Positions 21,444 through 59,639 of a DNA stretch of 64,000 nt are shown one piece after another; positions within the stretch are counted from its first letter, which is position 1, and each line of letters begins with the position of its first letter. Location of the stretch: positions 31,666 through 95,665 of the IMG/VR virus record IMGVR_UViG_2814123113_000001; one strand, given 5' to 3'. The translations under genes and the position numbers were made by a program. The DNA is from a virus. Its lineage: Duplodnaviria; Caudoviricetes. The notes beneath the pieces were generated by a model. That model did not search any database. It was not told where the DNA came from and saw only the letters and a program-made list of their open reading frames with translations.

Positions 21444-21460
21444 TGCGAACGCCGTTCGCA
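21444..21460. promoter_or_regulatory. dispersed palindrome TGCGAACGSCGTTCGCA, first of 9 copies in prophage 2
   Basis: Other copies start at 26646, 30881, 35462, 40754, 45310, 50044, 57436 and 58412 (the last has C in place of the first T). Confidence 0.85.
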
Positions 21461-21468
21461 CGCGAGGC

Positions 21469-21834
21469 TTAGAAGCCGCGCCGCCGGCGTCGATCGACAG
21501 TCAGAGCGCGGGTGATGGCGGTGGCGTCGATGTCGATCGCGCCGACGTGGATCCGGCTGTCGATCTTGCCGTCCAGGCCGTCCGCGTGGCGCAGGATCTT
21601 GGGCCCATAGGTCGACCACAGGAACACGGCCAGGCCGGCCAGCATGATCAGATCGCCCCAGCTGGGCGGGTGACCGCTGAACCGCGGAATCGCGGCCAGC
21701 ACCATGCCGGCTGCGAAAAGCGCCAGGCCCAGGCGCTGGGCGCGGCCCAGCAGGCCGCCCCAGCCCAGCAGCAGCAGACAGACCGTCGCGATCAAGATCC
21801 CCGCCGCGACGATGGAAAGGCCCAGGACGATCAT
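21469..21834 (-). CDS. membrane protein (holin/antiholin-like)
   Basis: Three hydrophobic segments; basic C-terminus. Confidence 0.65.
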   Translation of the reverse strand: MIVLGLSIVAAGILIATVCLLLLGWGGLLGRAQRLGLALFAAGMVLAAIPRFSGHPPSWGDLIMLAGLAVFLWSTYGPKILRHADGLDGKIDSRIHVGAIDIDATAITRALTVDRRRRRGF

Positions 21835-21837
21835 GGC

Positions 21838-22215
21838 TTAAGCCTCCCCGCCGCCGATCCGCAGGCCGCCGACCTCAAACTTGATCAGCTTCAGCGGATC
21901 GCCCGCATACTTCGCCGCCGCCTGGGCCAAGCCCGCCAGCACGATCATGCCGAACAGGCCCGTCAGGAACGAGAAGGCGCTGCCGAACTCGCCCGGCAGC
22001 TTGCCCCAGGGCCACACGGCCCCCAGGCCCGCCACGATCGCCGGCGCGACCCACAGCGCGCTGGCCAGGCCGCCCAGGACGCTCAGCGCCTTGCCCCGCA
22101 CCGTCAGCTTTTCGCCGAACGCCAGCGACAGCACCGCGCCGGCGACGCCGGGCGCGTAGGGCGTGAGCTTGCCCAACACCGCAATCAGTTGCGGATCCCC
22201 TGAATTGTCGGCCAT
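21838..22215 (-). CDS. putative holin
   Basis: About three TM segments; upstream of the endolysin. Confidence 0.7.
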   Translation of the reverse strand: MADNSGDPQLIAVLGKLTPYAPGVAGAVLSLAFGEKLTVRGKALSVLGGLASALWVAPAIVAGLGAVWPWGKLPGEFGSAFSFLTGLFGMIVLAGLAQAAAKYAGDPLKLIKFEVGGLRIGGGEA

Positions 22216-22271
22216 CGGCCGCCCCTCCTTAAGCTGAAAACAGCGCCGCCATGGGCGCAAAGGCGTTCGGG

Positions 22272-22730: not shown

Positions 22731-22758
22731 TAGCGCCGTCAGGCGCTACCCTGACGGC

Positions 22759-25099: not shown

Positions 25100-26593
25100 T
25101 TAGGCGAACCAGGCCAGCCACTGGCCAGAGGCCAGGGGGCTGTTGAAGGCGGGAAGGTTGATCGCGGGCGGCGCGGCGGCGCTCTCGCCGCCGGTCACCG
25201 CGAAGTTGTTGGGCGTGATCTGGCGGACCAGTTCGGTCGCCCAGGCCGTCGTCAGGCCGGTCTTGCCGGCCGGGCCGGTGACCACGGCGGGCGTTCCGGC
25301 CAGGGCCATGACGTACACGTCGCCGCCGCCGGCCTTCATGACCTCGACGCGATAGTTGGCCGCCAAGCCCGCCGGGACGTAGATGAAATTCAGGCCCTGC
25401 GAGGTGCAGGCGATCAGCTTGGCGTTGTCGCCCGCCGACAGCACGCGGCTCGACGCGGCTTCCTGCACCGTCTGGCCCGTGACGGCCGACAGCGCCGACA
25501 GCGCCGCCCCGACCGTGACGTTCGCCGAGGTCGCGGCGGCGTTGGCCGCGTCGGCCGCCGTGTTGGCGTCGCCGGTGGCGGCGTTGGCGGCGACCGTCGC
25601 GGCGGCGGCTTCGGTCGCCCTCTGGTCGGCCAGGGTCGCCTTGCCGTCCGCGAAGTTGGCCTTGGTGTTGGCCAGGGCGGCGGCGGTGTTGGCGGCGGCT
25701 GTGGCCGCGTCGGCCGCTTCCTTGGCCGCCTGCGCCGCCGAGGCCTTCTGATCGGCCAGGGTGGCCTTTTGGTCGGCCAGGGTCGCCTTGGCGTCGGCGA
25801 GCGCGGCTTTCTCGTTGGCGAGGTCGGCCGCGTCATCGGCGAGGCCCGCCTTGTCGTTGGCGTTGGTCGCCGCCGCATTGGCCGCCGCCGTGGCCGCGAC
25901 CGCTGCTGTCGTCGCGGCGATCACATTGGCCGTCGCCGCGCCGCCGAAATCGGCCGCGTCGTCGGGATCGGTGACCAGGCCGCCGTCACCGACCCAGGCG
26001 CCGACCGTCGGCTTGACGCCGCCGCCGCCCGCCCAGTCGATCACCTTCAGCAGGCGATGCGGCGGGTCGGTCGCATCGTCGGTGGCCAGCACGGGCGTCC
26101 AGCCGTTCCACCCCGCCGCGCCGCGCGTGCCGCGAACCACGCGGGCTTGGCCCGGGCCACGGATCACTGTCAGGGACGGGCCGCTCGAGGGCAGGGGAAG
26201 CGAGGCAAACGAGCCGCCGACCGAAAGCCCGGTCTGGATCCGCACGGTGGCGACAAACACCACTTCGGTCGTGCCGTCCGGACGGGTCCAGGACTGCTCG
26301 ACGTCATAGACGCCCTCGGGCCACGTCTGCAGCTGGGGCGCGCGGACGCGCGGGCCGACCAGGTTGGGCGCGGTCACCTGCAGGCTTCCGTCCTCGGTCG
26401 ACAGCAGGATGGGCTCCGCCGCCTGGCCCAGGACCGGCGCGCGGCGCTTGAGCGTCAGATAGTGGTCGTAGGCGGTGATGTCCTCGGCCTGGTCCGCGCC
26501 GTCGCCGGCGTCGAGGCGGAAGGCCACGTCGATCAACCAGTCGCCGTCCGTAAAGACGGTGTCCCAGGGTTCGCGAAGGGTCGCGGTGCTCAT
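25100..26593 (-). CDS. tail fibre protein with Ala-rich coiled coil
   Basis: Baseplate-upper-like N-terminus; KATLADQ heptad repeats. Confidence 0.7.
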   Translation of the reverse strand: MSTATLREPWDTVFTDGDWLIDVAFRLDAGDGADQAEDITAYDHYLTLKRRAPVLGQAAEPILLSTEDGSLQVTAPNLVGPRVRAPQLQTWPEGVYDVEQSWTRPDGTTEVVFVATVRIQTGLSVGGSFASLPLPSSGPSLTVIRGPGQARVVRGTRGAAGWNGWTPVLATDDATDPPHRLLKVIDWAGGGGVKPTVGAWVGDGGLVTDPDDAADFGGAATANVIAATTAAVAATAAANAAATNANDKAGLADDAADLANEKAALADAKATLADQKATLADQKASAAQAAKEAADAATAAANTAAALANTKANFADGKATLADQRATEAAAATVAANAATGDANTAADAANAAATSANVTVGAALSALSAVTGQTVQEAASSRVLSAGDNAKLIACTSQGLNFIYVPAGLAANYRVEVMKAGGGDVYVMALAGTPAVVTGPAGKTGLTTAWATELVRQITPNNFAVTGGESAAAPPAINLPAFNSPLASGQWLAWFA

Positions 26594-26670
26594 CAGGGGC
26601 TCCAGGCATAGGGGGTCGCGCGAGCGCCTGCGGGCGTCGCGGTGATGCGAACGGCGTTCGCATGGTTGGG

Positions 26671-27246
26671 TCAGGTCAGGTCGGGCACCGGGTAGTCGGC
26701 GAACCGCTGCGAAGCGGCCTCTTCCAGGCCGCCCGGAATGTCGGCGAGGTCGGGAACCGCTAGGCGAAAGACGCCCGTCCCGCGCCCGCTCGGCAGGGCG
26801 ATTTCGACCTGTTCGAGGTCATCCCATTCCGGCCGCCAGGCGAGCCGCGTGAAGGGGTCGCTTTCGAGCTGGTCTGTCAGGTCGGCGCGATGATCCGAGA
26901 AGCCGCAATAGCGCCCCGCCGGATCGAACAAGGCGACCTTGAGAGGGCGCGCCGCATAAGAGACGCGCTCTAGCTCGATGGCCTTTTCAACTGCCGAGGC
27001 CAGCCCGCCAAACATTTGAGCGAGCGCGGCCTGTCGATCAGCCTCGACCGCGCCCGCCGCGTCGATCGCGGTCAATAGGCCCGAAAAGGCCCGGGCGATA
27101 ACCTCTTGCAACCGGGCCGCCTCGGCGGCGGCCAGGCGCTCGCGGTCGGCCTCATCACGGGCCGCCAAGGCCGTCGCGACAGCCTCGGCGACCTTGGCTT
27201 CGATCAACGCATTGACCGAGGGCGGATCGGCTTGCTGCTCTTCCAT
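26671..27246 (-). CDS. hypothetical tail-region protein
   Basis: GGAGG RBS before MEEQQ. Confidence 0.6.
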   Translation of the reverse strand: MEEQQADPPSVNALIEAKVAEAVATALAARDEADRERLAAAEAARLQEVIARAFSGLLTAIDAAGAVEADRQAALAQMFGGLASAVEKAIELERVSYAARPLKVALFDPAGRYCGFSDHRADLTDQLESDPFTRLAWRPEWDDLEQVEIALPSGRGTGVFRLAVPDLADIPGGLEEAASQRFADYPVPDLT

Positions 27247-27257
27247 AGCCTCCCTCC

Positions 27258-30200
27258 CTATCCGTTGTAGATCGCGGTCGGCAGCAGCTTCACGCGGTTG
27301 ACGTACAGTTGCGGCGAGCCGCCCGCCGGGTTGGCGAAGGCCACGGGCGTGAAGTTGATGTAGCCAGAGCCGGGCAACCGCAGATGCACGGGAACCGTCA
27401 GGGTCGCCGGGTTGCCGGGTTCCACAAGCGCGGCGTCCCAGCCCGTAAAGAACGACCCGAACCCGCCGGTTACAGCCAGGTTGATCCAGAGCCCGACCTG
27501 ATTGACCAGATCGTCGTTCACAGCCGCGACGTAGTAGGTCAGTTGGATGGTCGTGTAGGCCCCGCCGCCGCCCCGAACCTCGACGCTGATCCCCGAACCG
27601 ATCACCGACGGAGATCCGGCCGACGCCGACAACAGAGTCGAGCCCGACCAATCGACGAGCCCAGCGTTCGCGATGGCCCCGGCCTTGATGTAGTAGGTAT
27701 CAAGCTGCCCCGTCACCAAGCGGTCGGCCGTGATCGAGAACGCCGAGACCTTGTCAGCCGTGACCGCGCCAGCCGCCAGCTTGTCGGTCGAGACAGCGCC
27801 CGCCCCGATATAAGCCGCGCTCACGGTCCCGGCGGTCAGCCGGTCGCCCGTAATCGAGCCCGCCGCGATTTCGTTCGCCGTCACCGCCCCGGCCGCCAGC
27901 TTGGTGGTCGTGATGGCGCCTGACTGGATTTCCAGCGCCGAGACAGCGCCCGCCGCGATCTTGCCCGCCGCCACGGACCCAGCCGCCAGCTTGGGGGTCT
28001 GGATCGAGCCGTCCTGAATTTGCGTCGTGGTGATCTGGCCAGCGAGCTTGACCGCCGACAGCGCCGCAATCTGGCTATCGCCGATCGTGCCGGCGATGTC
28101 GGCCGCCGCCACGCCCGTGACCCAGGCCCCGGCCACATAGCGATAGAGCTTGCCGTCGCTCGCCACGCGGATGGTCTTGGGGCCAGCGTAGCCCGAAGGG
28201 CTGGGCAGGGTCGGGAAGACGCCGACCGGTTCAAGATCGGCTGGGAAGTCGGCGATTGCGAGACTGTCGGTCGTGGCTGCGAACATGTCCGTCGGCCCGG
28301 CCGGGTACCAACCCGAGACGTTGCCCGAACGGTCGATCGCTCGAAGGGCGTAGTAGCGGGTTACACCGCTATCCAGACCCGATCGCGTCCAGCCGTTGCG
28401 ACCGCCGGCGTATCCCGCGACCGTGGCCACCTTCTGCGCCGTGAACCGATCATTCCAGCTAGATTCCCAAAGCTCGATCTTGTCGAGATCCGCGTCTGAC
28501 GGATCGGTCCAGCGCAGGAAGATCGAGCCCATGGACGTGTCGGCCGAGATCGAAGACGGCGCCCCTGGCGGCGTGGTGTCCGGCGTCAGGGGCGGCGCGA
28601 CAAGGGCGCCCGTCGTCAAGGTGATCCAGCTGCTGGGCGTGATCGCCCGTCCAGGCGCGCCGAGGGGCACCAGGCGCACCTGGATCACGCCGGATGACGG
28701 CACGCCGGCGGTCACGTTCATGACGCCCGCACTGACCTCGCCGGTCGTCGTCGGCGTCACGTCCGTTCCGCCGTTCGGCCGGATCTCGGCGCGGATCTGG
28801 GTGATCGCCGCGTCCACCGGCGTTGTCCAGGACACGCGAACGGCGGGCAGCGCGCTGCCGTCCGTCCCCGTCAAGGTGATCGCCGTCGCCGCAACACCCG
28901 CCAGGGCCAAAGCCCCCACCGGCGTGACGACGGGCGTCGGCGCAGGCTCTACCGCCAGGGCGCCGAAGCCATAGACCGCATAGGCGGTTTCCTCGAGCAC
29001 CAGGGTGTTCCGCCAGGCCTCGTCGAGCGCGTACTTGTTGACGCGCATGGTGACCGTCTCGCCCTTGGTCCGGTAGTCGGACGTGTAGGTGATCCAGTCG
29101 CCTTCCTCGAGGCCGGCGAATTTCGGCGGCAGGGTCAGCAGGCCGCGCCGCTCGAGGCGGGCGCCGCGCCGCTTGATCTCGCCGATCCGCAGCGCCTGGC
29201 TGCGATGGCGCACCAGGTTCAGCGAGAGAGAGGTCTCCTTAGGGCCGCCGTCGCTCAGAATGTCGGTGTCGTCGCGCAGCACGCCCGCCGTCGTCATGGC
29301 GAACTTCTGGCTGGGTTCGACATAGCTGACGACCACGCTGTTGATGCGGTCCGCGTCGGAAACCTCGTTTGACCACTGCACCGATCCGCCGACGACCAGG
29401 TCATCATCGGTGATCGCCGCGACAGGCGACTTGGCTTGGCCTGGCTCGACCGCCACGCCGCCCTCCGGCTGGATCACAAAGCCGGCCATGGCGTCGGCGA
29501 ACCACTGCTCAACCGTGTTGAAGTCCTGGTCGGCGCTGATCACCCCGCCGACACGGTAGCGCGGCTCGTTATAGGTCAGGCCGGTCGCCGTGTCGGTCCA
29601 GGAGACGACCTCGTCACAGAGGTTCGCGGGCGCGAAGACGCGGGCGGGCGGGGCCTCATAGGCCGACAGACCCCGACCCAGCATCAGCGACGCGGGCTGA
29701 TCCACCTGGTCCAGGAAGTAGACGCCGCGACTGATGTTGTATCGGCAGATCTCTGTGTTTTCGGTCCACTCGCGGGTGCTGGGATCATCCCAGCGATGCG
29801 CACCTGAACCGCCCGGGACCGTGCTGTCCTTGCGCGGGTCGTAGCAGAGCAGGCCCTTGACCACCCAAAGGAAGCTGGGGCGCCCCGTGGTCCAGATCGG
29901 GTTCTTCGCATCGGGGGCGTCGGCCTTGTAGGCCACGATCACCCGCGCCACGCCTTGCAGCGCGCCCGTGGCGGTCGCTGGGCCCAGGCCCGAGAGGTCT
30001 GAGGGCAGCGCGGCGTCGGTCGCCGTCCCGGCGCGCCAGTAGACGCGCAGCTGGTTGTTATAGCCGGCGACAAAGCCGTCACCCGAAAAGGCGCGATAGT
30101 TGTCGCCCTCATAGAAGCCGACCAGGCTGTGGCAGCGGTGATCAGCCACGGCGATCACCAAGACGTTCCAGTCCGTGCCGTTCGCACCGCCGAACCAATA

Positions 30201-30548: not shown

Positions 30549-30943
30549 CAGCCCGCGCTCCACGCCAGAACCATGGCGGATCTCGGCAAGCGCTCTTGTC
30601 CGCGCTCGCCGGGCCCCACCAGGGTGTCACCTTCAACGATGGCCAGCTGCAGCCGGCCTTCCAGATCCCGCCAGCCGGCGACATCGCCGCGCTGGGCATG
30701 CCCAGGGGCGACCGGCGTCAAGACGGCGCCCACCGCCGCCTCCAGGCCGCCCAGGCTGGCGATCAGCCGGGTCGCCTCCGCAGCCGATCGCCATTGGCCG
30801 CGATAGACCGCCAAGGGATCCTCGCCCGTCAGCGCCTGGACCGCGCCCGCCGCGAAGGTGACGCAGTCGTGCTCTCCCCATGCGAACGGCGTTCGCATGT
30901 GCGACGCCACAAACAAGTGCAGCGCCTCGTAATCGCGGACCAT
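30548..30943 (-). CDS. NlpC/P60-like tail protein (DUF6950-like)
   Basis: PFAWGEHDCVTFAA...AQRGDV. Confidence 0.8.
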   Translation of the reverse strand: MVRDYEALHLFVASHMRTPFAWGEHDCVTFAAGAVQALTGEDPLAVYRGQWRSAAEATRLIASLGGLEAAVGAVLTPVAPGHAQRGDVAGWRDLEGRLQLAIVEGDTLVGPGERGQERLPRSAMVLAWSAG

Positions 30944-50030: not shown

Positions 50031-50242
50031 GCGAAGTCCTCGATGCGAACGCCGTTCGCACGGCGCACGATGAAGTTTCGGGCGTCTTCCGCCGCCTCGA
50101 CCAAACCCAGGCGCGCTATCCGCCGCGCGGCCTCCTGGTCAGCCTGGTAGGCGAGGGTCGCCCACGTTGCCCCATGGCGCTCGGAGTCCAGCACGCGGCT
50201 CAGGACGTAGCGCTCGCGGTCCGTCAGGTCCTCGCGCGTCAT
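50027..50242 (-). CDS. hypothetical protein
   Basis: ATGA overlaps at both ends. Confidence 0.6.
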   Translation of the reverse strand: MTREDLTDRERYVLSRVLDSERHGATWATLAYQADQEAARRIARLGLVEAAEDARNFIVRRANGVRIEDFA

Positions 50243-50979
50243 GGCTCCAGCCCGTCAAACAGCGGCGCGGGCGACGCCCGGCCATAGCGCTGGACATCGT
50301 CGCGCTTCCAAAGCCGGGCCTTGGTCCCGGGCGGGATCAGCGTGCTGGGCCAGAGGCCCAGGCGGCGGCTGGCGGCGATCGCGTCCGCCAGCGGCGAGAC
50401 GTCCTCTGCAGCCGGGTGCATCCAGACAAACCACGAATAGGCCGTGGCGAACGTACCCTCATGATCCCAGTAGCCCAGGCGCATCGAGACCCGCTCGGAG
50501 AACGTCGCCTGCAGCGCCAGGCGCTTCATAAGGTCGTAACGGCCCTCGCTTTCCAGGGCCGTGGTTCGCAGCAAAAGGGCCACGCCATTGCGCGCGACCT
50601 CGAGGCCCCGCTCGACGAACTCGCCCAGGTGCTTGAACGGCGGATTGGTCACCACCCAGTCAGGCTGCTCGATTGACTGGCGCGCGCCGCGATCGAGGAA
50701 GTCCTCGACCCCGCCGAACCCGTGCGCGTGGATGTCCGTCGCTCGCACGCGGAACGCCTCGCCCAGCGGGCCGGCCATGTGACCCTCGCCGCAAGCCGGC
50801 TCGTCGATCGAGACCGCGCCAGGATCGGCCAGCAGCACGATCTCGCCGCCGGCGCGCCCCGCCCAGGGCGGCGTCGGGAAATAGTCGAGCGCGCGATAGA
50901 GCGCGGTCTGGGCGTCGTCGGCCTCGACGATCGCCGGCGCATGGGCCTCGACCACGGCGCGGGAGGGCTTGCGGCTCAT
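50239..50979 (-). CDS. N6-adenine-type DNA methyltransferase
   Basis: DYFPTP, EPACGEG, VTNPPF. Confidence 0.85.
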   Translation of the reverse strand: MSRKPSRAVVEAHAPAIVEADDAQTALYRALDYFPTPPWAGRAGGEIVLLADPGAVSIDEPACGEGHMAGPLGEAFRVRATDIHAHGFGGVEDFLDRGARQSIEQPDWVVTNPPFKHLGEFVERGLEVARNGVALLLRTTALESEGRYDLMKRLALQATFSERVSMRLGYWDHEGTFATAYSWFVWMHPAAEDVSPLADAIAASRRLGLWPSTLIPPGTKARLWKRDDVQRYGRASPAPLFDGLEP

Positions 50980-51533
50980 GCGCGCCTCCGGACGGCGGCG
51001 ACCAGGTCGTCTTCGGCCACGCTGAAAAGGTCGGCCACTTCCGGCAGCGGCCATCGGGCGCGCAGGAAGTGGCCCGCCCACCGCGCGATCCGGTCGGTGA
51101 CCGGCTTCAAGCGCATTCCGCCCTTACGATACGCGGGCGGAATGGCTGCGGTGGGCGACGCCGCCGGCGCTGGCGAGGTCAGCGCGGTGGCGGCGGAAGA
51201 GGAGAGGACCGGCGTTGCAGCGACCAGATCCGCGTCGGAGGCAGCCGGCCGGTCGTAGCGCTCGACGCGCTTGACCACGGGCTTGGCGATTTCAGGTTTT
51301 GCGCCCGGCGTCTTGCGGGGCTTTGCAGCTGGGACCTCGGCCGGGGCCTTACGGGCCTGGTCGTCGGCGCGCAGCATCTCGAGCGCCTGGGCGACGCTGC
51401 TGACCTGCAGGCGGCCTAGCCGATTGTAGACCGCGGACTCCGAGCTGCTGCACATGAAGGCGATCGACGCCGTCGACATGCGGGCGGCGTAGAGGCCCAG
51501 GATGTTGCGATCTTTGGCGCTCAGCGGCGTCAT
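50976..51533 (-). CDS. HTH-containing protein
   Basis: LSAKDRNIL...STASIA...SAVYNRL; second HTH-like segment at the C-terminus. Confidence 0.6.
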   Translation of the reverse strand: MTPLSAKDRNILGLYAARMSTASIAFMCSSSESAVYNRLGRLQVSSVAQALEMLRADDQARKAPAEVPAAKPRKTPGAKPEIAKPVVKRVERYDRPAASDADLVAATPVLSSSAATALTSPAPAASPTAAIPPAYRKGGMRLKPVTDRIARWAGHFLRARWPLPEVADLFSVAEDDLVAAVRRRA

Positions 51534-51901
51534 GGGCGAGCATCCCCCATCAAGTCATCGACAAGGTCCGCGACAGCGATCAGAGGGCGCGCGAAAGACC
51601 GCCGCCCCCTTGGGCTGGCGTCGCGAAAGGCTTTGGCGGCGAAAATCAGCATCGCCGCCGCCCGCGCGCCCTCGGGCGTCTGCAGGGCGAAGGGCGTGCG
51701 GCGGGCCAGCGAGATCTCGTTGGCGAAGTCGATCAGGCTCCAACGGGCCACGCCCGAGGGATCGGGCTGCGCGCCCCGCGTCTCGATCTCGGCCGCCGCG
51801 CCCAGCTGGCGACACATGGTCACCAGCCGACGCCAGCGGATCGCCGGATCCAGGTCCTGGTGGCGACGCATCTGCTCAACGCTGAACGGGCGCTTGCGCA
51901 T
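51530..51901 (-). CDS. hypothetical phage protein
   Basis: Coupled ORF. Confidence 0.55.
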   Translation of the reverse strand: MRKRPFSVEQMRRHQDLDPAIRWRRLVTMCRQLGAAAEIETRGAQPDPSGVARWSLIDFANEISLARRTPFALQTPEGARAAAMLIFAAKAFRDASPRGRRSFARPLIAVADLVDDLMGDARP

Positions 51902-51902
51902 C

Positions 51903-52238
51903 TCAGCCGTCCAGATCCGCACGCGCTCGCGCGGGCCGCCCAGGGGCCAGGGCCGCCTCGACCTGGTCAGCCAGGCCGGCCAGCAGCGGGGCCTTCTCGA
52001 CGCGCTGGTCTGGGTGCAGACCTGCAAAGGTCTTGCCCAATTCGACCAGGCGCTGAAAGGGCGAGCCCTTGAAGGCGAACGCGGGCGGGACCTGCGCGCG
52101 GCCAGCGACCTGCGCCCGCTTTCCTAGGTCGCCGGCGAACGCCAGGGGCGCAGAGGCCTGCGCGCGGGCAGCCTTGATCAGGCGCGCCCACTTGCCGAGG
52201 CACTCGGTGCTGGGTTCGGGAAGGCGCCGCCGGCTCAT
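51903..52238 (-). CDS. hypothetical phage protein
   Basis: GAGG RBS; coupled ORF. Confidence 0.55.
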   Translation of the reverse strand: MSRRRLPEPSTECLGKWARLIKAARAQASAPLAFAGDLGKRAQVAGRAQVPPAFAFKGSPFQRLVELGKTFAGLHPDQRVEKAPLLAGLADQVEAALAPGRPARARADLDG

Positions 52239-52330
52239 GGCGCGCCCTCTCCATCGGTGGGAGCGGTTTGCCCGCCCCCACCGACTCGCGGTTCCTTGCC
52301 AAGACCCCTCTCAAACAAGGAACCGAACCG

Positions 52331-52609
52331 ATGATCAGCCGCGCTGAATTTGAAGAAGCGATGCTGAAAATGGCTGAACTGAACACCCAACGCGCCACGG
52401 AAATCCGAGCCCTGGACCGCCTGGTCATGGCGCTGGCCTGCATCGGCGTCGACCAGGCTGCAGACCGAACCGCCTATACGGAGAAGCTTCGCGGCATGGC
52501 GCTTGGCGCTGTCGAGCAGGGCTCCGATCCGCGCGTGGAACCGCTGCGCGAACGTCTGGAGCTGCTGCTGGCCAAGATCGAGGCCTGGTCGGCGCAAGAT
52601 CACGGGTAG
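52331..52609 (+). CDS. small counter-oriented helical protein
   Basis: AAGGA RBS; codon usage typical of coding sequence. Confidence 0.6.
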   Translation: MISRAEFEEAMLKMAELNTQRATEIRALDRLVMALACIGVDQAADRTAYTEKLRGMALGAVEQGSDPRVEPLRERLELLLAKIEAWSAQDHG

Positions 52610-53132
52610 CTCATCCGCCCAGGCGCACAGTTCTTTCTGGCGTTCGATCTCCTGGCGCCAGGCTGCGGGCTCGGGACAGACCGGCTTGAAGGGCCAGCTC
52701 ATCGGCCGCCCTCGCCACGCGAGGATTTCGCTGCGCACGCGAAATCCGGTTTATGACTCGAAATGCAACCAATGGTCAATTGAGTCGCATTGTCGCAACC
52801 GAAGCGTTGCCTTTTAGGTTGCGCAGAATTCAAGTCTCGCTTTGAAATACCCGTGCGACGGGTTGTCGCAGTAGGAGTAAAGCCAGTGTTGAGTGAGAGG
52901 GAAGCCGCCGTAGAGCGGGTGCTTAGTGACTTGCGCGCCTTGTTGAATGGCCGCGCCGATACAGTCTGCCCCTGCGGAAGGGGCGAGAAGTACAGGATTG
53001 CGCAGGGCGACGTCTTGGCCAAGGCGCTGGCGCAAGTGCATGAGGCGCGCAGCTTTGCCGAAGCCGCCGTGCAGAACGCCGATCGAACGCTAGGCGCGCT
53101 TGAGGAGCTTTCGGGTCTGGCGAGAGCGGCCC

Positions 53133-53408
53133 TCATGGCGCCGCCTCAATAGCGATGGGCTCAGCGAAGTCCTTTTCGCTGATTTGGCCGCCCGTATAGG
53201 CCTCAATCCGTCGAGCGGTTTCGTCGTCAGGCACCGTCCGGCTGGGGTCACCAAAGGGCAGGCACAGGCGGCGAACATACTCGTGCGAGCGGTCGAGCGC
53301 CGCAGCTGCCGCACGATGCGAGATGCCCCGATCCCATAGAAATTGGGCGAGGGCGGGCCTTTGGCGAGGGGGCGGAAGGGTCTCCACGGTCGATGTCCTG
53401 AGCTTCAT
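53133..53408 (-). CDS. cro: Cro-like regulator
   Basis: RGISHRAAAAALDRSHEYVRRL...RIEAYTGGQI; divergent from cI. Confidence 0.75.
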   Translation of the reverse strand: MKLRTSTVETLPPPRQRPALAQFLWDRGISHRAAAAALDRSHEYVRRLCLPFGDPSRTVPDDETARRIEAYTGGQISEKDFAEPIAIEAAP

Positions 53409-53419
53409 CGACCATGGAA

Positions 53420-53460
53420 GCGAAACTGCTTCGTTGATTTTGTCAACGAAAGCGTTTCAT
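53420..53460. promoter_or_regulatory. OR-like operators of prophage 2
   Basis: GCGAAACTGCTTCGT and ACGAAAGCGTTTCAT; consensus ACGAAAC-n-GTTTCGT. Confidence 0.7.
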
Positions 53461-53471
53461 AAATAGAAACG

Positions 53472-54281
53472 ATGCCGTCGCTCGCCCGCGCCTTCTCCGT
53501 TGCGCAGGTTGTCTCAATGACAACCGACCGTGACGATGACCAAGAGGCCCGCCTATGGGGCCGGGCGCTCAGCGTGCTGCGCCACGGCAAGGGGCTTAGC
53601 CAGGCTCAAGCCGCCGAGGCGTTCGGTGAGGGCGGTATCAGCGCCCAGGGCTGGGGCCTCTATGAGAGCGGCAAACGTCCCGGTATTTTCCGACCGGAGG
53701 TCCAGCGCAAGCTGGCCAAGGCCCTAGGGGTCACGCCTGCGGATCTGCTCGATGCCCGCCGCGCTCTGGATGGGCCGGCTGCCGAGCAGCGACCCATAGC
53801 CGAGATACGCGAGTTTCGGCCTAAGCCGGCTTCTGGGGACCTGATCATCCGCGATCGCGTCCAGGCCGGCGCCTTCCTGATGGCGGATGACCTTTCTCAG
53901 ATTGAGCCTCGGCCTTATCCGGCCCTCAAGGACAGCCGCTATCCGGCCGCCGAGCAATGGCTTTCGCAGGTGGTAGGCGATTCCGTGAACCTGCTTGGGA
54001 TCATCGAGGGCGACCTGGTTCATTGCGTTTCTGCGATCGACATCGGTTATATGCCGCGAACGGGCGACATCGTTGAGGTCGAGCGGCTGAGGTTTGGCGG
54101 GCGGATGCGCGAGCTCACCGTTAAGCAGGTTGAGGTCACCGCCCAGGGCGTCGTTCTGTGGCCTCGATCGACCAACGAACAGTTTTCCGCCCCCGTGGTC
54201 CTCACGGATGGCCTGGCGGACGGTGAAGAGGCCGAGGTCCGAATCCGTGGCCTGATCGTCGGCTCAATCCGCCGCTACTAA
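53472..54281 (+). CDS. cI: CI repressor, HTH + S24 (LexA-like) peptidase (start uncertain)
   Basis: GLSQAQAAE...YESGKR; VQAG cleavage site; VGDSV and TVK catalytic motifs. Confidence 0.88.
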   Translation: MPSLARAFSVAQVVSMTTDRDDDQEARLWGRALSVLRHGKGLSQAQAAEAFGEGGISAQGWGLYESGKRPGIFRPEVQRKLAKALGVTPADLLDARRALDGPAAEQRPIAEIREFRPKPASGDLIIRDRVQAGAFLMADDLSQIEPRPYPALKDSRYPAAEQWLSQVVGDSVNLLGIIEGDLVHCVSAIDIGYMPRTGDIVEVERLRFGGRMRELTVKQVEVTAQGVVLWPRSTNEQFSAPVVLTDGLADGEEAEVRIRGLIVGSIRRY

Positions 54282-54586
54282 CCCAGATAGTTGTCCGCCG
54301 GCCGCGCCTCGTCTGACGGTCTGGTCGGCGAGGCCGCTTCAGCTGGCGCCGAGATCCCGAGCTGCGCAGCCTGGATGTCCATCAGTCGCGCCTCGATCTT
54401 GCTGAACAGGCCCTTCCAGAAGCCCAGGAACGCCAGGCCGCCTGCCATGACGATAAAGATCGTGGCGAAGACCTCAGCGCCAGCCGCGCCGCCGCTGGCG
54501 GCCATTGCGCAGAATGCGGCTAGGGCAAAGGCTGCGCCCGCCGCCCACATGTAGCTAGCGCCGTTTCCAATTCGCGCCTTTTGCAT
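54278..54586 (-). CDS. small two-TM membrane protein next to cI
   Basis: GAGGG RBS; two hydrophobic helices. Confidence 0.6.
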   Translation of the reverse strand: MQKARIGNGASYMWAAGAAFALAAFCAMAASGGAAGAEVFATIFIVMAGGLAFLGFWKGLFSKIEARLMDIQAAQLGISAPAEAASPTRPSDEARPADNYLG

Positions 54587-54673
54587 GCCTACGCCCTCGT
54601 TTGTTTCTTCACGCGTTGCGCGCATCTGACCAGTCGCGCGCCTTAAGGAACAGCGATCGTTCCGTTTCATTAA

Positions 54674-54722
54674 ACGATTTTGTTTCGTTGGATCGTTGAC
54701 ATTGCCAACGAAACGGTTTCGT
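54674..54722. promoter_or_regulatory. OL-like operators and early promoter of prophage 2
   Basis: ACGATTTTGTTTCGT, TTGACA at 54696, perfect ACGAAACGGTTTCGT at 54708-54722. Confidence 0.75.
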
Positions 54723-54792
54723 TTCGTCCACAACCTCGCGCCGACCTGGAACGGATTACCCGTCAGCGGCGGAGGGCAGGAGGACTGTTTGC

Positions 54793-55062
54793 ATGGAACT
54801 GAACGCTGACACCCACGGCCTTTCGCTGGTGGTGGCTGACCGGGGCTTTGTCTGGGTCGGTGAAACGGTCACGACCCAAGACTGGGTCGAGATCAAGAAC
54901 GCCCGCTGCGTGCGTCGCTGGGGCACGACCAAAGGCCTGAACCAGCTTGCCGTCGAAGGCCCGCTGTCGGGCACCCAGCTCGACGCGCCCGCCGACATCA
55001 AGGTCAACCGCAAAGCCCTCATCGCCATCATCCCGTGCGAGGCCGAGAAGTGGGCCGCGTAG
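54793..55062 (+). CDS. DUF6948-like small phage protein
   Basis: GGAGG RBS; paralog of 9476-9757. Confidence 0.78.
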   Translation: MELNADTHGLSLVVADRGFVWVGETVTTQDWVEIKNARCVRRWGTTKGLNQLAVEGPLSGTQLDAPADIKVNRKALIAIIPCEAEKWAA

Positions 55063-55304
55063 CCACCCTCGACGGCCAAGGTGCGGGCACCGCCCGCACC
55101 GACGGCGACGGCGACGGCTACGGCGACGGCTACGGCTACGGCGACGGCTACGGCGACGGCTACGGCTACGGCGACGGCGACGGCTACGGCGACGGCTACG
55201 GCGACGGCTACGGCTACGGCGACGGCGACGGCTACGGCTACGGCTACGGCTACGGCTACGGCGACGGCTACGGCTACGGCGACGGCGACGGCTACGGCTG
55301 GTGA
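55050..55304 (+). CDS. Gly-Tyr/Gly-Asp repeat protein (GTG start)
   Basis: Same N-terminus and GW* ending as 9745-10107. Confidence 0.65.
   Translation: MGRVATLDGQGAGTARTDGDGDGYGDGYGYGDGYGDGYGYGDGDGYGDGYGDGYGYGDGDGYGYGYGYGYGDGYGYGDGDGYGW
55104..55295 (+). repeat. 32 tandem hexamers GGC(T/G)AC
   Basis: Read directly. Confidence 0.97.
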
Positions 55305-55307
55305 GCC

Positions 55308-55365
55308 GGAGGCCCGGCCAGGGCTCGGCGTAGCCCTACCGCCCTGGCCGGGCCTCCTCTTTTTC
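55308..55365 (+). terminator. 17-bp stem hairpin followed by TCTTTTT
   Basis: Identical to 10111-10168. Confidence 0.75.
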
Positions 55366-55413
55366 AAACCACATCAAAGGGCGCGCCAGGCGCACCCAAC
55401 GGAGGATTCCAAA

Positions 55414-55851
55414 ATGGCCTTTGACGCCGAAGCCGGTCGCACCCCTAACCCCATCGACGTTGCGGTCGGCCGCCGCATGCGCGATCGCCGCAAGACGCTG
55501 GGGATGAGCCAGGAGGCCTTGGCCGCCGCCCTGGGGATCACCTTCCAGCAGATCCAGAAGTACGAAAGCGGCGCCAACCGCATCAGCGCCAGCAAGCTCT
55601 ACGCCGCCGCCCGCACGCTGCAGACGCCGGTTCAGAGCTTCTTCTTCGGCCTGCCCGATCCGGTGGCGGATCCGGACGCAGCGATCGAGGTCGAACCCGC
55701 CGGCCAGGCCCTGATTGACACCCAGGCCGGTGCGCGCCTGGCCCGCGCCGCTTTGGCCTTACCCCAGGATCTGCTGGTCAAACTGGCCAACATCGCCGAA
55801 GCGATCGCCGACGCCGTTGCGACGCAGCAGCCCAAGGCGGACGCCCAATGA
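55414..55851 (+). CDS. XRE regulator of the alphaproteobacterial PraR/PhrR-like family
   Basis: PNPIDVAVGRRMR.RR..LGMSQE.LA..LGITFQQIQKYESGANRISASKL; GGAGG RBS. Confidence 0.88.
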   Translation: MAFDAEAGRTPNPIDVAVGRRMRDRRKTLGMSQEALAAALGITFQQIQKYESGANRISASKLYAAARTLQTPVQSFFFGLPDPVADPDAAIEVEPAGQALIDTQAGARLARAALALPQDLLVKLANIAEAIADAVATQQPKADAQ

Positions 55852-56354
55852 GCGCCGCCGCCATCCTAATGTCGCCGGCCGCGACCCAGCGCGCACTGCC
55901 GGAAACTGAGATTGTCGTGCGCTCGCCGATCGGCGACGTGCGGGTCTGGATCGACGGCGACGGCCTGGTCCGCACGTCGATCACCGCCGACCAGACCGCC
56001 AATGACGCCGCCGCCGGCGCCGTGCGCGACCTGGGCGTGCTGGTCGAACGCGCCCAGGTCGCCGTGCGCGGCCTCGTCACCGCCCTGGGCCCCCAGGTGC
56101 GCGGCGCGGGCCTCATGACCTGGTTGCGCGCCCGCTGCGACACCAGCAACCCGCACGCCCGCACCCCGGCCACCGTGCTGTTCAACGACTACGTCGCCTT
56201 CATCGAGAGCGAGGGCGGCCAGATCATGAGCCGCCGCGCCTTTGGCGACGCGCTGTCCAGCCAGGGCCTGCCGCCCGCCGGCAAGAACGCCGCAGGTCTC
56301 AAGTATCGCGGCGGGGTGGTGCTGAAAGCTCAGCTCGAGGAGACGAGCCAATGA
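55848..56354 (+). CDS. protein with helicase-type C-terminal winged helix
   Basis: LFNDY...MSRRAFGDAL...AGK similar to the C-terminus of 47236-48840. Confidence 0.7.
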   Translation: MSAAAILMSPAATQRALPETEIVVRSPIGDVRVWIDGDGLVRTSITADQTANDAAAGAVRDLGVLVERAQVAVRGLVTALGPQVRGAGLMTWLRARCDTSNPHARTPATVLFNDYVAFIESEGGQIMSRRAFGDALSSQGLPPAGKNAAGLKYRGGVVLKAQLEETSQ

Positions 56355-57007
56355 CCAGCCCGTTCGGACAATGGTACGCCGCCCGCTGCGTCATCGAGGC
56401 CGGGGCCACCAGCCGGGGCCTCGACCTCTACGCCGACTACAAGGTCTGGGCCGTCGCTCAAGGCCATGCGCAGGTGATGTCGATCCGCGCGTTCGGCGAC
56501 GCCCTGCAGCAGCGCCAGCACGTCCTGGCGGGCCGCGACGCCGAGCGCGTCAGGCTTCGTGCGGGCCTGCGTCTTCGCCAGACCAGCGACATCGCCGCCG
56601 CCCCGCGCCGGATCGGCAACTCGGAGTTTTACGCTTGGGCCGCCGCCCGCCTCGTGATCGACCCCGCCGAGACCACCTCGTTTTCGGCGCTGCTGAACGA
56701 CTACGCTTGGTGGTGCGACCGGCAGGAGCGCTTTCAGTCGCTCTCAGCGCGCTACTTCGCCGGAATGATCGCCGAAGTCCTGCCGTGGGCCAAGACCACC
56801 AACGGCGGCGGCATCACGGTTTATGCAGGGGTTCGCCTGGCTCCCGGTCAAGACCCGCCTGGATCACCCCCGACATGCTGCACAGGATCCGCTGATCCAG
56901 GTGCTCCGACGATCCGCCGTGCGCTGGCAGCTCTGCTTCGATCGCTCGCCGCAAGGCTTGATGGCCGGCCTCCAGCTCCACCCGAGCCTCCGGCGAAATC
57001 CGGCTGA
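56351..57007 (+). CDS. protein with two helicase-type winged-helix domains
   Basis: SPFG.W...MSIRAFGDALQQRQ shared with the helicase; second divergent copy. Confidence 0.78.
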   Translation: MTSPFGQWYAARCVIEAGATSRGLDLYADYKVWAVAQGHAQVMSIRAFGDALQQRQHVLAGRDAERVRLRAGLRLRQTSDIAAAPRRIGNSEFYAWAAARLVIDPAETTSFSALLNDYAWWCDRQERFQSLSARYFAGMIAEVLPWAKTTNGGGITVYAGVRLAPGQDPPGSPPTCCTGSADPGAPTIRRALAALLRSLAARLDGRPPAPPEPPAKSG

Positions 57008-57121
57008 TCAACCATTCGATCAGGAACTCCATCGCCGCCACCCGGTGCTCCAGCTCCGCGTCGCCCGCGCATCCCGCGTTCTGCGTCATCCCTCACCCCC
57101 CTCCGGATCGGATCAACACAG

Positions 57122-57478
57122 ATGATCGAGTCCACTCCTGAGTCCAGGCCGCCCCGCCTGTCCAGCGCCGCCGTCGACCGCATCGCGCAATGCCTGTCGG
57201 CGATCGAGGCCGCGCCTGCCGCCCAGCACAGCGTCGCCCTGTGCGTGATTGATCGCATCGCCGAGCCGCGCGCCGTGGTCGGCGTCATCGCCGGCGGCCG
57301 CCGCTTTGTGCTCGAGGCGGCCGAGGCCGACATGGCCGCCCGCGTCCTGGTGGATGACCGCCCGATCGCCGGCGCGCGGCTCATCGCCAACCATCTGCTG
57401 TTCCGCCTGGGCCAGGCCGAGCTGCTGCGCTTCCGTGCGAACGCCGTTCGCATGCTCACGCCGATGGGGCGCGGCTGA
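57122..57478 (+). CDS. hypothetical phage protein
   Basis: ORF in the early operon. Confidence 0.55.
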   Translation: MIESTPESRPPRLSSAAVDRIAQCLSAIEAAPAAQHSVALCVIDRIAEPRAVVGVIAGGRRFVLEAAEADMAARVLVDDRPIAGARLIANHLLFRLGQAELLRFRANAVRMLTPMGRG

Positions 57479-57480
57479 CC

Positions 57481-58014
57481 ATGGGGGAGGTCCTGTCCCT
57501 GGCCGACGCAGCCGCGCGCCTCGAGCCGCTGGGCGGCCAGGTCGTGGCAACGGCGATCCCCAGCGGGTCGCCGGCCGAGCCCATGCCGCCCTCGCTTCGG
57601 TTCGCCGGCGACGAGGGCGACGAGGTCAAGATCTTCTATCGCGCCCTCGAGGACCGCGAGGCGGCGGTGTCGGTCCTCTACGACGCGACCACCACCAACA
57701 AGGTGATCCGCGAGCTTTGCCGCCGCCTCGGCCGCAAACCCGACCAGCTGATCGCCACCGACGCCCGCCACATCAAGGACCCCTTCGGCGGCGAGCCCGA
57801 CCCCTTTGGCCTGGCCTACATCCACCAGGCCGCCGGCGCGCGCGGCGAGAAACCCGGCGAGGCGCTGGCCTTCGTCAAGGGCGTCAGCTGGGTGACGCTC
57901 AACGTGGCCCTGAAAAAGCCCGTCAGCCTTCCGCCCGCGATCCGCCCGCCCCGCGAGGGCGAGGAAGCCCCCGCCGACGACACCCCCGAAACCCTTTCCG
58001 GAGACGACGAATGA
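57481..58014 (+). CDS. hypothetical phage protein
   Basis: Strong GC3 codon bias; ATGA overlap with the parB-like gene. Confidence 0.65.
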   Translation: MGEVLSLADAAARLEPLGGQVVATAIPSGSPAEPMPPSLRFAGDEGDEVKIFYRALEDREAAVSVLYDATTTNKVIRELCRRLGRKPDQLIATDARHIKDPFGGEPDPFGLAYIHQAAGARGEKPGEALAFVKGVSWVTLNVALKKPVSLPPAIRPPREGEEAPADDTPETLSGDDE

Positions 58015-59639
58015 CGTCGCTGATAACGCACCAGTTGCTGGATGCGGAACCTGTCCTGCGCCTGCTGCAGGGCAAGGCTCAGGCCATGACGGCCACCCAG
58101 ATCGCCAAGGAAACCGACCGCGATCCGTCGAACGTGCGCAAGGGCCTGCAGGCCTTCGAGGCCGCTGGCCTCTTGATCGGCGAGTCGGACGTGAAAGGCA
58201 CTGCCTATCGGATCTCGCCCGCTGGCGTAGCCGGTCTCGAGGCGCTGGACGGCCAGGGCGCGGTGGGTCTGCCGCTCTGGCCGCTCGACGCCATCGACTA
58301 CAACCCCGACAACCCGCGCAAGTCGGTGGCCCAGGAGGCCCTGGAAGGGCTGGCCGACACCATCGCCGAGGCCGAGGGCCTGCTGCAGCCCATCGTCCTT
58401 TATCCCGCCGGCGCGAACGGCGTTCGCATGCTGCACGCCGGCGAGCGCCGGGTCCGCGCCTGTCGCCTGCTGCAGGCGCAGGGTCGCTTGCCGCCGGCGC
58501 TGCAGGCGGGCCTGCCCTTCATCGAGCGCGAGGCCAGCAAGGCCCAGGCCCTGTTCATCGGCCTGGTCGAGAACAGCCAGCGCGAGAACCTGAGCCCCTT
58601 CGAGGACGCCCAGGCGCTCAAGGCCTTCCAGGACGAAACCGGCCTTTCGGCACGCGCGATCGCCTTCAAGTTGGGCCGCGCCCGCGAAGGCAGTGAGGAG
58701 GGCGTCCGGGACGTTCAGGAGAAAATCAAGGTTCTGACGCGCGCCAAACCCGAGGCCATTGCGCGCGTCCAGGCCGGCCGGGAAAGCTTCGACTGGCTGC
58801 GCCAACAGGTCCGCAAGCGCATCGAGGACGTCGGCCAGCAGCTGCGCCCGGTCGACATACTGACCCTGGCCGAGGTCAAGCTGCAGGCCCGCCGCAAGCC
58901 CAAGCGCTTCAGCTATGGCGAGCGGGAAACCGAGTGCAGCTACAAGGCCGGCAAGGACCCGATCCTTAAGGGATTGGTCTCGCAGGGCCTCCTGGCGTTC
59001 ACCGAACAGGCGCGCGACGACCACAAGGCCTATGTCGAGATCCGCCACGCCGCGCTGGAGATCTTCAACACCGAAGAACTCGCCGGGATTTATGGCGACC
59101 TGAAAACCGCTGAGGAGCTGGTGCGCCAGCTCCGGATCGAAGCGTTCGGACAGGGCGGGGCATCTGTCCTGTCGATGAACGAAGAGTACGCCACGACCTG
59201 GCTGAACGGCCCCTTCACGCTCTCGGAAAAGGCCCAGGCCCTCGTCGACGCCGCCAAGGTGACCCGCCGCGAGCTGATCGCCGCCAACAAGGCCAAGAAC
59301 GCAGCCCACAAGGCCCGCGTCGAGGAGGCGACCGCCATAGTGGTCGCGGTCGAGGAGCACGGCCTCGCCGGCCCCGCCATCGACGCCGTCGTCCTGCAGC
59401 TGGGGCGCTCGAAGATCAAGTTTCCACTGCGCGTCGAGAACAAGAACATCGTCGACGGCAAGGGCGACGCGGTTTTCTACAACGGCATGGGCTGGCGCTT
59501 CGCCGAGGACCAGGACGTCCTCATGCCGCTGCTGGTCGCTGTCCTGAACAGCGTCCTCGCCCCCACGCCGCTCGAGGCGGCGATCGCCAAGGCCCAGCCA
59601 GATCCCCAAGCCCAGGAGGAAGCTCATGCCGCCGCTTAA
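58011..59639 (+). CDS. ParB/KorB-like protein with extra N-terminal HTH
   Basis: NPDNPRK, GLLQPIVL, AGERRVRA, LVENSQRENLSPFEDA; N-terminal TATQIAKETDRDPSNVRKGL. Confidence 0.88.
   Translation: MTSLITHQLLDAEPVLRLLQGKAQAMTATQIAKETDRDPSNVRKGLQAFEAAGLLIGESDVKGTAYRISPAGVAGLEALDGQGAVGLPLWPLDAIDYNPDNPRKSVAQEALEGLADTIAEAEGLLQPIVLYPAGANGVRMLHAGERRVRACRLLQAQGRLPPALQAGLPFIEREASKAQALFIGLVENSQRENLSPFEDAQALKAFQDETGLSARAIAFKLGRAREGSEEGVRDVQEKIKVLTRAKPEAIARVQAGRESFDWLRQQVRKRIEDVGQQLRPVDILTLAEVKLQARRKPKRFSYGERETECSYKAGKDPILKGLVSQGLLAFTEQARDDHKAYVEIRHAALEIFNTEELAGIYGDLKTAEELVRQLRIEAFGQGGASVLSMNEEYATTWLNGPFTLSEKAQALVDAAKVTRRELIAANKAKNAAHKARVEEATAIVVAVEEHGLAGPAIDAVVLQLGRSKIKFPLRVENKNIVDGKGDAVFYNGMGWRFAEDQDVLMPLLVAVLNSVLAPTPLEAAIAKAQPDPQAQEEAHAAA

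Follow-up and report, generated by a model that had tools for sequence, protein, structure and literature searches.

Proteins of the ParB fold act as cytidine triphosphate (CTP) switches in partition (ParB), in the division block (Noc) and in the regulation of mobile elements (KorB, VirB and BisD). Here, we have analyzed an orphan ParB-like protein and a set of dispersed palindromes of prophage 2 in the IMG/VR provirus record IMGVR_UViG_2814123113_000001; the stretch under study, in the following called the window, has a length of 64,000 nucleotides, corresponds to bases 31666-95665 of the 95,665-bp record and has about 67% G+C. KorB of the IncP plasmid RK2 is a ParB-family CTP clamp of a mobile element for which twelve palindromic OB sites are reported across about 60 kb, corresponding to one per 5 kb, with conservation of both sequence and position in a distant relative (PMC13768133), and the clamp is described to slide from its sites and to act at a distance (PMC11790492). 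BisD, an orphan ParB-like CTP-binding clamp of the integrated element ICEclc, is reported to spread over about 50 kb and to control 11 promoters via an extra domain absent from ParB (PMC12409273). The phage-encoded ParB-type protein SopB of N15 is likewise described with several cognate palindromes scattered over the genome (PMC3235114, citing Ravin and Lane 1999). Noc of Bacillus is a ParB paralogue without ParA function that has many dispersed palindromes, the Noc-binding sites, genome-wide. It is a host protein acting on the chromosome and has a membrane-targeting N-terminus.

Dispersed sites are also described for other phages. Cluster O mycobacteriophages (Corndog) are reported to contain at least 34 copies of an invariant 17-bp dyad repeat which is located between as well as inside genes, is absent from the host and is unexplained in its function; the ParB-like domain protein gp90 is among three candidate repeat binders (PMC4351075). 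The Cluster O motif TGTTCGGNNNCCGAACA is unrelated to the one described here, denser (about one per 2 kb) and crowded toward one genome end; furthermore, these phages are not obviously temperate, and the authors did not connect the repeat with gp90 (PMC4351075). Cluster A stoperators and the master-repressor sites of SPbeta are described as many copies of one site used for the genome-wide silencing of a temperate phage, but their binders are immunity repressors and not ParB-fold proteins. A survey of 2025 describes orphan ParB-like genes as enriched on prophages, with a role unknown (PMC12704722), and a review of ParB-family regulators from November 2026 lists VirB and BisD, the word "phage" being absent from its main text (PMC13768133). 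Full-text searches, with supplements outside their scope, revealed no paper in which evenly spaced cognate sites are linked to an orphan ParB of a phage.

The 95.7-kb record consists of two tandem prophages, each ending in a large serine recombinase, and prophage 2 extends from about 19.8 to 64 kb of the window. The sequence TGCGAACGSCGTTCGCA occurs there in eight exact copies (sites 1-8 in Table 1), whereas its expected count was 0.00 in 100 dinucleotide shuffles. A ninth copy (site 9) has one mismatch, with C replacing the first T. The initial annotation had counted nine copies, of which eight are exact and the ninth is near-exact only; its palindrome is real but had been written too short, the conserved stretch being about 19 bp long (RTGCGAACGSCGTTCGCAY). 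The gaps between the nine sites are 5202, 4235, 4581, 5292, 4556, 4734, 7392 and 976 bp, and the first six are within the range of 4.2-5.3 kb that had been given for the first seven copies. The region 50061-57435, which covers the immunity region, is devoid of any copy, and the division into three intergenic copies (sites 1, 2 and 4) and six copies inside unrelated genes was also confirmed. Site 7 is located 14 nt upstream of the start of a primase-like gene at 48837-50030 (-). As had been noted, five proteins carry the peptide ANAVR or ANGVR, i.e. five of the six intragenic copies encode it, and the sixth (site 3) reads MRTPFA. The common reading frame would correspond to G or C at third codon positions and thus is presumably an effect of codon usage, not a peptide under selection.

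The host is a Caulobacter, and genome G073 harbors the ParB gene of prophage 2 at 100% identity. The 13-bp core CGAACGSCGTTCG was found 22 times in this genome: 21 copies are located in an island at 3,525,368-3,614,241 and one in the other approximately 4.05 Mb, which corresponds to a roughly 900-fold enrichment in the two-prophage island as compared to the rest of G073. A check of the host backbone had been proposed by the initial annotation; the motif is not equally frequent there. The lone copy outside the island lies at G073:C1:2827730. Among 101 genomes of the genus, 36 are without the core, 60 have one to five copies and five have 7-22 copies. In these five core-rich genomes the copies cluster in islands of about 40-90 kb (in the fragmented genome G045, on a few short contigs), and in all five a long homologue of the winged helix-turn-helix (wHTH)-ParB is encoded within the cluster or next to it. 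The gene of this homologue itself contains one site in G004 and in G054. The ParB homologues named are from Caulobacter and Brevundimonas; one of them, P0025, is named by NCBI as Caulobacter vibrioides. This species is a tractable laboratory model.

Confinement of the palindromes and the ParB to prophage 2, as initially assumed, proved too narrow, because prophage 1 has the same kind of pair, which is a trait of a whole phage-borne ParB family with several site variants. Prophage 1 encodes a wHTH-ParB of its own (P0002) and has 12 of the 21 core copies of the record, four of them in the window and the rest upstream (record positions 1219-31354). The nonamer AACGSCGTT, S being C or G, occurs 22 times in the record and 21 of these copies lie within the core. 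P0002 and the ParB of prophage 2 (P0001) have 30% identity in the first 231 residues only. P0002 scores 28.3 bits with ParB_N (cut-off 26.3) and 54.7 bits with TIGR00180, just under the cut-off of 58.45. Because the prophage 1 sites, with their unconserved flanks, lack the TG/CA flanks of prophage 2, cross-binding between the co-resident prophages could be possible in one direction only.

All open reading frames (ORFs) of both prophages were compared by tblastn with six other motif-bearing elements, and ParB was the only protein with a homologue in all of them. An alignment of 27 homologues was used to scan viral contigs and yielded 29 loci, all but one of them new. Of the 28 new loci, 24 have at least two copies of the family palindrome within about 20 kb, and it was usually the commonest 13-mer palindrome. 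Scans of whole records revealed 7-16 family sites in 15 of 15 ParB-bearing records as compared to 0-2 in the reversed control. Conversely, a search for the sites identified another 14 viral records in which the core occurs four or more times; 12 of them have ParB_N in an ORF of 476-928 amino acids (aa), and the two motif-bearing records without ParB_N are only 77% and 49% complete.

Furthermore, relatives were collected via the terminase large subunit TerL (58 loci), and 19 long records outside the ParB list encode a TerL 50-67% identical to that of prophage 2. Fifteen of these 19 records have no ParB_N; they showed 0-2 family hits, the level of the control and mostly with CGCGCG halves, and a broader pattern including flanks was hit 0-1 times. 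Hence, the presence of the motif in related phages lacking the ParB gene, which the initial annotation had named as an observation that would speak against a link, was at background in 15 of 15 cases. Another relative (G149) has a weak, sub-threshold match to ParB_N in a 290-aa ORF and no sites, and the remaining three, in which ParB_N is clear, harbor 6, about 8 and 9 sites at even distances. In all ParB-bearing relatives under examination, the number of sites was 6-16. Among deposited phages, 21 kb gave no match in megablast, and tblastn of P0001 against 50,697 phage records yielded 12 matching records, each with 23-33% coverage and 29-38% identity; because the former search was blank and the matches of the latter were partial, no cultured phage with a P0001-type protein was found.

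Prophage 2 was aligned with the syntenic phage G004:C25, the proteins of which are 55-89% identical. Eight of the nine sites are present at orthologous places; only site 2 has no orthologue, and the tail-fibre region is non-homologous there. The orthologous 19-bp sites are identical at 148 of 156 positions, the flanks of ±150 nt at 1742 of 2492 (70%). Additionally, five prophage 1 sites are kept in G047, where the flanks are 67-79% identical. These comparisons indicate that the sites are under purifying selection at the DNA level.

The half-site class is fixed per lineage across the whole set of sites. At least five variants were identified (CGAACG, CGAGCG, CGCACG, CGACCG and CGAACC), with CGACCG half-sites occurring mostly as hybrids with CGAACG. 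The classes cluster on a tree of ParB N-terminal halves with 8 changes as compared to 13.0 after shuffling, and none of 200 shuffles was as low. Nonetheless, site classes were switched several times, whole sets together. Site 9, which the initial annotation had correctly placed just before the GERR motif of the ParB-like gene, encodes ANGVR directly preceding MLHAGERR (Box II). In the homologues, the loop preceding Box II reads ANGV, ASGA or ASGV, which by the genetic code are the peptides to be expected from CGAACG, CGAGCG and hybrid sites. Hybrid sites, in which the two halves are not complementary, occur frequently (6 of 8 in G139, 5 of 5 in L046 and several in G104-G108), which fits a dimer reading two half-sites and speaks against a hairpin. 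The asymmetric sites of G139 and L046 may be intermediates of a specificity switch. Hybrids are composed of CGACCG-S-CGTTCG in G139 (loci L233-L235) and of CGCACG-S-CGTTCG in L046. A further class, ATG-CGAACC-S-GGTTCG-CAT, was found in G140 (loci L236-L238) with nine copies 3.6-6.5 kb apart; there, one hybrid copy is located just past the ParB_N-coding stretch of the parB ORF.

Evenness of spacing was determined as the coefficient of variation (CV) of the gaps, which in 16 of 17 elements was smaller than expected for random placement (P<0.05 in 12 of the 17); these tests are not fully independent, as several of the phages are related and their site positions inherited. The CV was 0.36 for prophage 2 (P=0.004), 0.18 for G118 (P=1e-4), 0.24 for G115 (P=3e-4) and 0.31 for G112 (P<1e-5). 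Six consecutive gaps with the uniformity of those in prophage 2 are obtained about twice in 100,000 random placements. Even spacing is found across lineages that differ in their site class and in their structural genes. In all elements together, 33% of the sites are located 100 nt or less from gene ends as compared to 17% of random positions, a modest excess at 3' ends which was obtained with a crude gene caller based on G+C at third codon positions and from redundant data, and on which we do not build.

P0001 starts with a winged HTH of the MarR/IclR/ArsR type (about residues 15-59; Pfam scores sub-threshold to borderline), followed by the ParB_N fold with Boxes I-III (91-189), a ParB-type HTH (about 192-233) and a C-terminal half of about 300 aa. 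ParB_N (PF02195) is matched with 47.2 bits (cut-off 26.3), and TIGR00180, which comprises N-domain and HTH, with 74.7 bits (cut-off 58.45); Pfam HTH_ParB alone gave 17.4 bits, under its cut-off of 22.6, and the NCBIfam Noc model 71.7 bits, far under its cut-off of 315. In residues 85-233, the family profile matches Spo0J (1vz0, E=6e-32), Caulobacter ParB (6t1f, E=1e-27) and Noc (7ol9, E=1.5e-24). The match to KorB (8qa8) is far weaker than that to Spo0J or Noc (E=1.2e-4, 24.5 bits). Boxes I-III read NPDNPRK, GERRVRA and ENSQRENL and are aligned with the boxes of 1vz0 and 6t1f. Among the 27 homologues, P99, R103, N188, Q190 and R191 are invariant, and G144, R147 and A150 are nearly so.

The C-terminal half of about 300 aa has no family match, residues 250-542 gave no hit of at least 0.9 in the ESM Atlas, and this half varies widely in length and sequence among the homologues, users of the same site included. 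Nearly all homologues of any length end in ...HAAA, ...DAAA or ...AA (P0001 tail ...HAAA, about 59616-59636). This conserved alanine tail may represent a C-terminal ClpXP-type protease degron, which it resembles. The absence of a ParA, already stated in the initial annotation, was confirmed: the deviant ParA-type Walker A motif KGGxGK[ST] is absent from the six frames of the 95.7-kb record, and no ParA family was found among the scanned ORFs of the prophages. The ParA-contact motif LG(R/K)GL was not seen on reading P0001, the N-terminus of which is the winged HTH. Furthermore, a KorA-like partner was sought, and neither a conserved neighbor beside parB nor a second dispersed palindrome in prophage 2 was found.

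From these data we consider it reasonably probable that P0001 is an orphan ParB clamp, similar to KorB and BisD, which loads at dispersed cognate palindromes and coats the phage genome. ParB dimers would recognize two half-sites, for which the core is CGAACG-S-CGTTCG with an extension to RTG...CAY in prophage 2. Binding of a nucleotide, CTP being the most likely one, would occur through the intact Boxes I-III, and the dimers would close into clamps and slide away from the site. With sites every 3-5 kb, neighboring clamps would overlap, such that the whole phage genome of 40-50 kb and no other DNA would be coated, and the coat would act across the whole genome. By analogy, its use is most likely the control of phage transcription or of the state of lysogeny or lysis and not ParA-driven partition. 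The initial annotation had proposed a tiling clamp outside classical partition. Its orphan nature is in agreement with the lack of a ParA and with both prophages being integrated and carrying serine integrases; the restriction of the sites to the phages, co-occurrence with ParB and even spacing in several lineages also hold, and binding of the sites, CTP use and sliding as well as the purpose, be it silencing, compaction, shielding or marking, stay conjectural.

The alternatives that had to be weighed are, in the order of their weight, partition with a host ParA, targeting of DNA modification, another binder of the palindromes and RNA structure. It appears unlikely that the palindromes are centromeres as in N15 and that the phage ParB relies on ParA of the host (or PopZ/MipZ) for the segregation or positioning of phage DNA that is replicating or still to be integrated. 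In its favor, chromosomal ParB/Spo0J are the nearest relatives of P0001 by sequence, P0001 scores above the TIGR00180 cut-off, centromere-like sites have been reported to be dispersed in N15, RK2 and pSM19035 (PMC3235114), and KorB is described to double as a partition protein (PMC13768133); however, the record has no ParA-type Walker A in any frame, LG(R/K)GL was not seen on reading P0001, the two prophages lie in integrated form with serine integrases of their own, TerL relatives with ParB are likewise recorded as proviruses, and 7-16 evenly spaced sites far exceed the needs of partition. We regard as quite improbable that ParB is the targeting or activating subunit of a DNA modification or cutting activity residing in its own C-terminal half or in a neighboring gene, with the palindromes modified for marking or anti-restriction. 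Neither methyltransferase nor dioxygenase nor nuclease families were found in the scanned genes of prophage 2 (only part of its ORFs was scanned), the C-terminal half is too variable among homologues with the same site for a conserved enzyme, and even spacing is of no obvious use to a mark. This has to be set against reports of frequent fusions of ParB-fold proteins from phages with methyltransferases and with domains of unknown function (PMC12704722) and of a thymine dioxygenase activated by a phage ParB (PMC13229309), and against the lack of a family match for the C-terminal half of P0001 and its neighbors.

There is only a slim chance that another phage DNA-binding protein, e.g. the XRE-type HTH protein (55081-55851) or the CI-like repressor, binds the palindromes in the manner of stoperators or SPbeta MrpR and that ParB merely co-travels. 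Dispersed repressor sites are reported for Cluster A mycobacteriophages (PMC9283540, PMC6550527) and prophage 2 does encode further HTH proteins, but homologues in every motif-bearing element exist for ParB only and not for the repressor or the XRE protein; prophages 1 and 2 have the core in common and not these two proteins, the immunity region is the one site-free stretch, and a site lies inside parB itself in the lineage of prophage 2 and in others. That the palindromes are DNA cruciforms, or RNA hairpins with a role in processing, stability or attenuation, instead of protein half-sites is very improbable: all copies are identical over 17-19 nt beyond what pairing needs, many hybrid sites are unable to pair at the changed position, copies occur in genes of both orientations and in gaps that do not look transcribed, and the strict link to the ParB gene is left unexplained, even though the 19-mer could form a hairpin of about 8 bp, sites are in modest excess near gene ends and a class switch changing both arms preserves pairing. 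Practically no weight is given to a host-wide or chance feature, be it the site of a host regulator, a by-product of codon usage or the repeated peptide ANGVR. The one reading frame of five of the six intragenic copies, which would favor it, is presumably to be expected from G/C third positions in a genome of 67% G+C, and of the other copies three lie between genes and one is read in a different frame; this explanation is refuted by the shuffles, by the counts in 101 genomes and by the single copy in the backbone of G073 versus 21 in 95.7 kb. A site of LexA or another host regulator was likewise dropped, because the host backbone lacks the site.

Several points weigh against the coating clamp. 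Binding, CTP use, sliding and downstream function are inferred, and clamp formation is assumed, because the C-terminal half of P0001, which may hold a dimerizing fold of another type, has no recognizable ParB dimerization domain (PF23552, E≤0.1). The ParB-type HTH GLSARAIAFKLGRA is almost invariant between phages of different site classes, P0001 and P0002 have the same core despite their low identity, and the residues reading the variable half-site positions were not found, as an alignment sorted by site class gave no clear pattern. The family motif is absent from four new ParB-related loci (out of 28), namely L050 and L054-L056, the latter being the three most distant. Evenness is weak in prophage 1 (P=0.06-0.16) and not significant in G106 and G107, and G054 with a CV of 1.04 is not even. 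Since many of the compared phages are related, not all counts are independent events, and the role in transcription control rests on analogy and on the modest excess of sites at gene ends. Within the reach of comparative genomics, the interpretation as a clamp is supported.

The coating clamp proposed here was compared with the described systems. As in RK2, sites are dispersed (9 per about 44 kb) and conserved in position (8 of 9 in G004:C25). The OB operator of RK2, like the phage core, has an odd length with a central S. The phages differ from RK2 in the weak similarity to KorB, E=1.2e-4 as compared to 6e-32 for Spo0J, and in the nature of the element, a temperate phage whose ParB is extended at its N-terminus by a winged HTH and is unrelated in its C-terminal half; most sites are intragenic, and their spacing is even. 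KorB works with IncC, which is a ParA, and with the clamp-lockers KorA and TrbA, whereas the phage record encodes no ParA and no conserved neighbor of parB. BisD is likened to P0001 via the ParB fold only: it is described with two bisS sites and asymmetric spreading as compared to 7-16 tiled sites, and to require BisC, and no such partner was identified in the prophages. Noc represents the second-best group of solved relatives, but P0001 remains far under the cut-off of the Noc model and has a winged HTH at its N-terminus. N15 has a cognate ParA (SopA) and an extrachromosomal prophage, whereas the phages described here integrate and have no ParA. The centromere sites of N15 are few and not evenly tiled. 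Stoperators are reported to be asymmetric and oriented with transcription (PMC4351075), whereas the phage palindromes are symmetric dyads avoiding the immunity region. The sites are perfect dyads, and the CI-like repressor is not common to all motif-bearing elements, which sets them apart from stoperators.

Table 1. Sites and genes of the two prophages in the window (positions in the window; orthologues in G004:C25 with their position).
Feature	Position	Strand	Remarks
Site 1	21444-21460		TGCGAACGCCGTTCGCA; intergenic, ~39 nt upstream of start of 21016-21405 (-); orthologue 43769
Site 2	26646-26662		intergenic, between 25100-26593 (-) and 26671-27651 (-)
Site 3	30881-30897		in 30548-30943 (-), phrog_2134, ~codon 16; MRTPFA; orthologue 33981
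Site 4	35462-35478		intergenic, 21 nt upstream of start of 35028-35441 (-); orthologue 29375
Site 5	40754-40770		in head-protease/major-head fusion 39465-41489 (-); ANAVR; orthologue 24080
Site 6	45310-45326		in TerL 43229-45379 (-), ~codon 18; ANAVR; orthologue 19491
Site 7	50044-50060		3' end of 50027-50242 (-); ANGVR; orthologue 14755
Site 8	57436-57452		3' end of 57122-57478 (+); ANAVR; orthologue 9717
Site 9	58412-58428		CGCGAACGGCGTTCGCA, one mismatch; inside parB; ANGVR before MLHAGERR; orthologue 8723, inside parB homologue
Orphan wHTH-ParB, prophage 2 (P0001, 542 aa)	58011-59639	+	domain and alignment matches
Prophage 1 core site	5949-5961		CGAACGCCGTTCG; flanks unconserved
Prophage 1 core site	6166-6178		core match
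Prophage 1 core site	14421-14433		~0.5 kb downstream of prophage 1 parB; orthologous site in G047
Prophage 1 core site	18650-18662		inside serine recombinase gene 18131-19777; orthologous site in G047
wHTH-ParB, prophage 1 (P0002, 746 aa)	11656-13896	+	winged HTH and ParB_N
Large serine recombinase, prophage 1	18131-19777	+	marks border between tandem prophages
CI-like repressor, prophage 2	53472-54281	+	phrog_4, phrog_8, phrog_3; divergent from leftward lytic operon; marks site-free immunity region
Large serine recombinase, prophage 2	62378-64000	+	cut by record end; parB in same rightward gene string

The genes of prophage 2 are arranged in two strings. The leftward string starts with a Cro-like gene at 53.4 kb and continues via primase/helicase genes, the terminase genes TerS and TerL, portal, the protease/major-head fusion and tail genes to small genes down to about 20 kb; the rightward string begins at about 54.8 kb, includes the ParB-like gene and finishes in the integrase. 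Site 5 lies at about residue 240 of the fused head gene, which is the junction of its protease and major-head parts. The XRE-type HTH protein encoded at 55081-55851 (+) contains an array of tandem 6-bp units GGCGAC/GGCTAC at 55108-55300, with at least 10 copies of a 12-14-mer; the array encodes a Gly/Tyr/Asp-rich N-terminal repeat of this protein, and HTH_3 is located at residues 134-185. The adjacent small genes 55848-56354 and 56351-57007 each match only the C-terminal end of phage primase families and stand apart from the primase/helicase genes at 47236-50030.

Besides ParB, the integrase (serine recombinases 58% identical) and a few small genes, prophages 1 and 2 have almost nothing in common. 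A small DUF6948 gene shows 86% protein identity between them (9332-9757 vs. 54793-55062), and a further short stretch is 89-100% identical between the otherwise unrelated prophages. This suggests a recent exchange where the two rightward operons begin. Prophage 1 additionally has two DNA methyltransferase genes, one of the N6/N4 type (845 aa; 759-3296, -) and one of the C5 type (501 aa; 3846-5351, -). Homologues of both are present in G047; none was found among the scanned ORFs of prophage 2.

New features of this putative ParB-fold clamp with dispersed loading sites, here in temperate phages, are the tiling and the re-coding of the sites. One orphan prophage ParB family thereby gains a concrete cis-partner, i.e. 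a phage-specific, selected, evenly tiled and re-coded set of sites. Site spacing would be a natural readout of the sliding distance a clamp needs, and the natural specificity switches provide material to study the co-evolution of a protein with about ten sites. As a tentative and rather doubtful extension, the clamp may form a nucleotide-switched "chromatin" of the phage which coats only DNA with the phage's own address code; this code, with its at least five half-site variants, would have been rewritten repeatedly at all 7-16 sites of a genome in concert with the protein, and the coat would set lysogeny or lysis, or silence or exclude rivals with the same code. If this were true, the address code would let co-resident or superinfecting relatives be told apart, which would represent a ParB-based form of phage immunity, and the tandem prophages with their common 13-bp core and differing flanks would be a natural case of cross-talk. 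The sites and their ParB may constitute a new layer of lysogeny control or of competition between phages.

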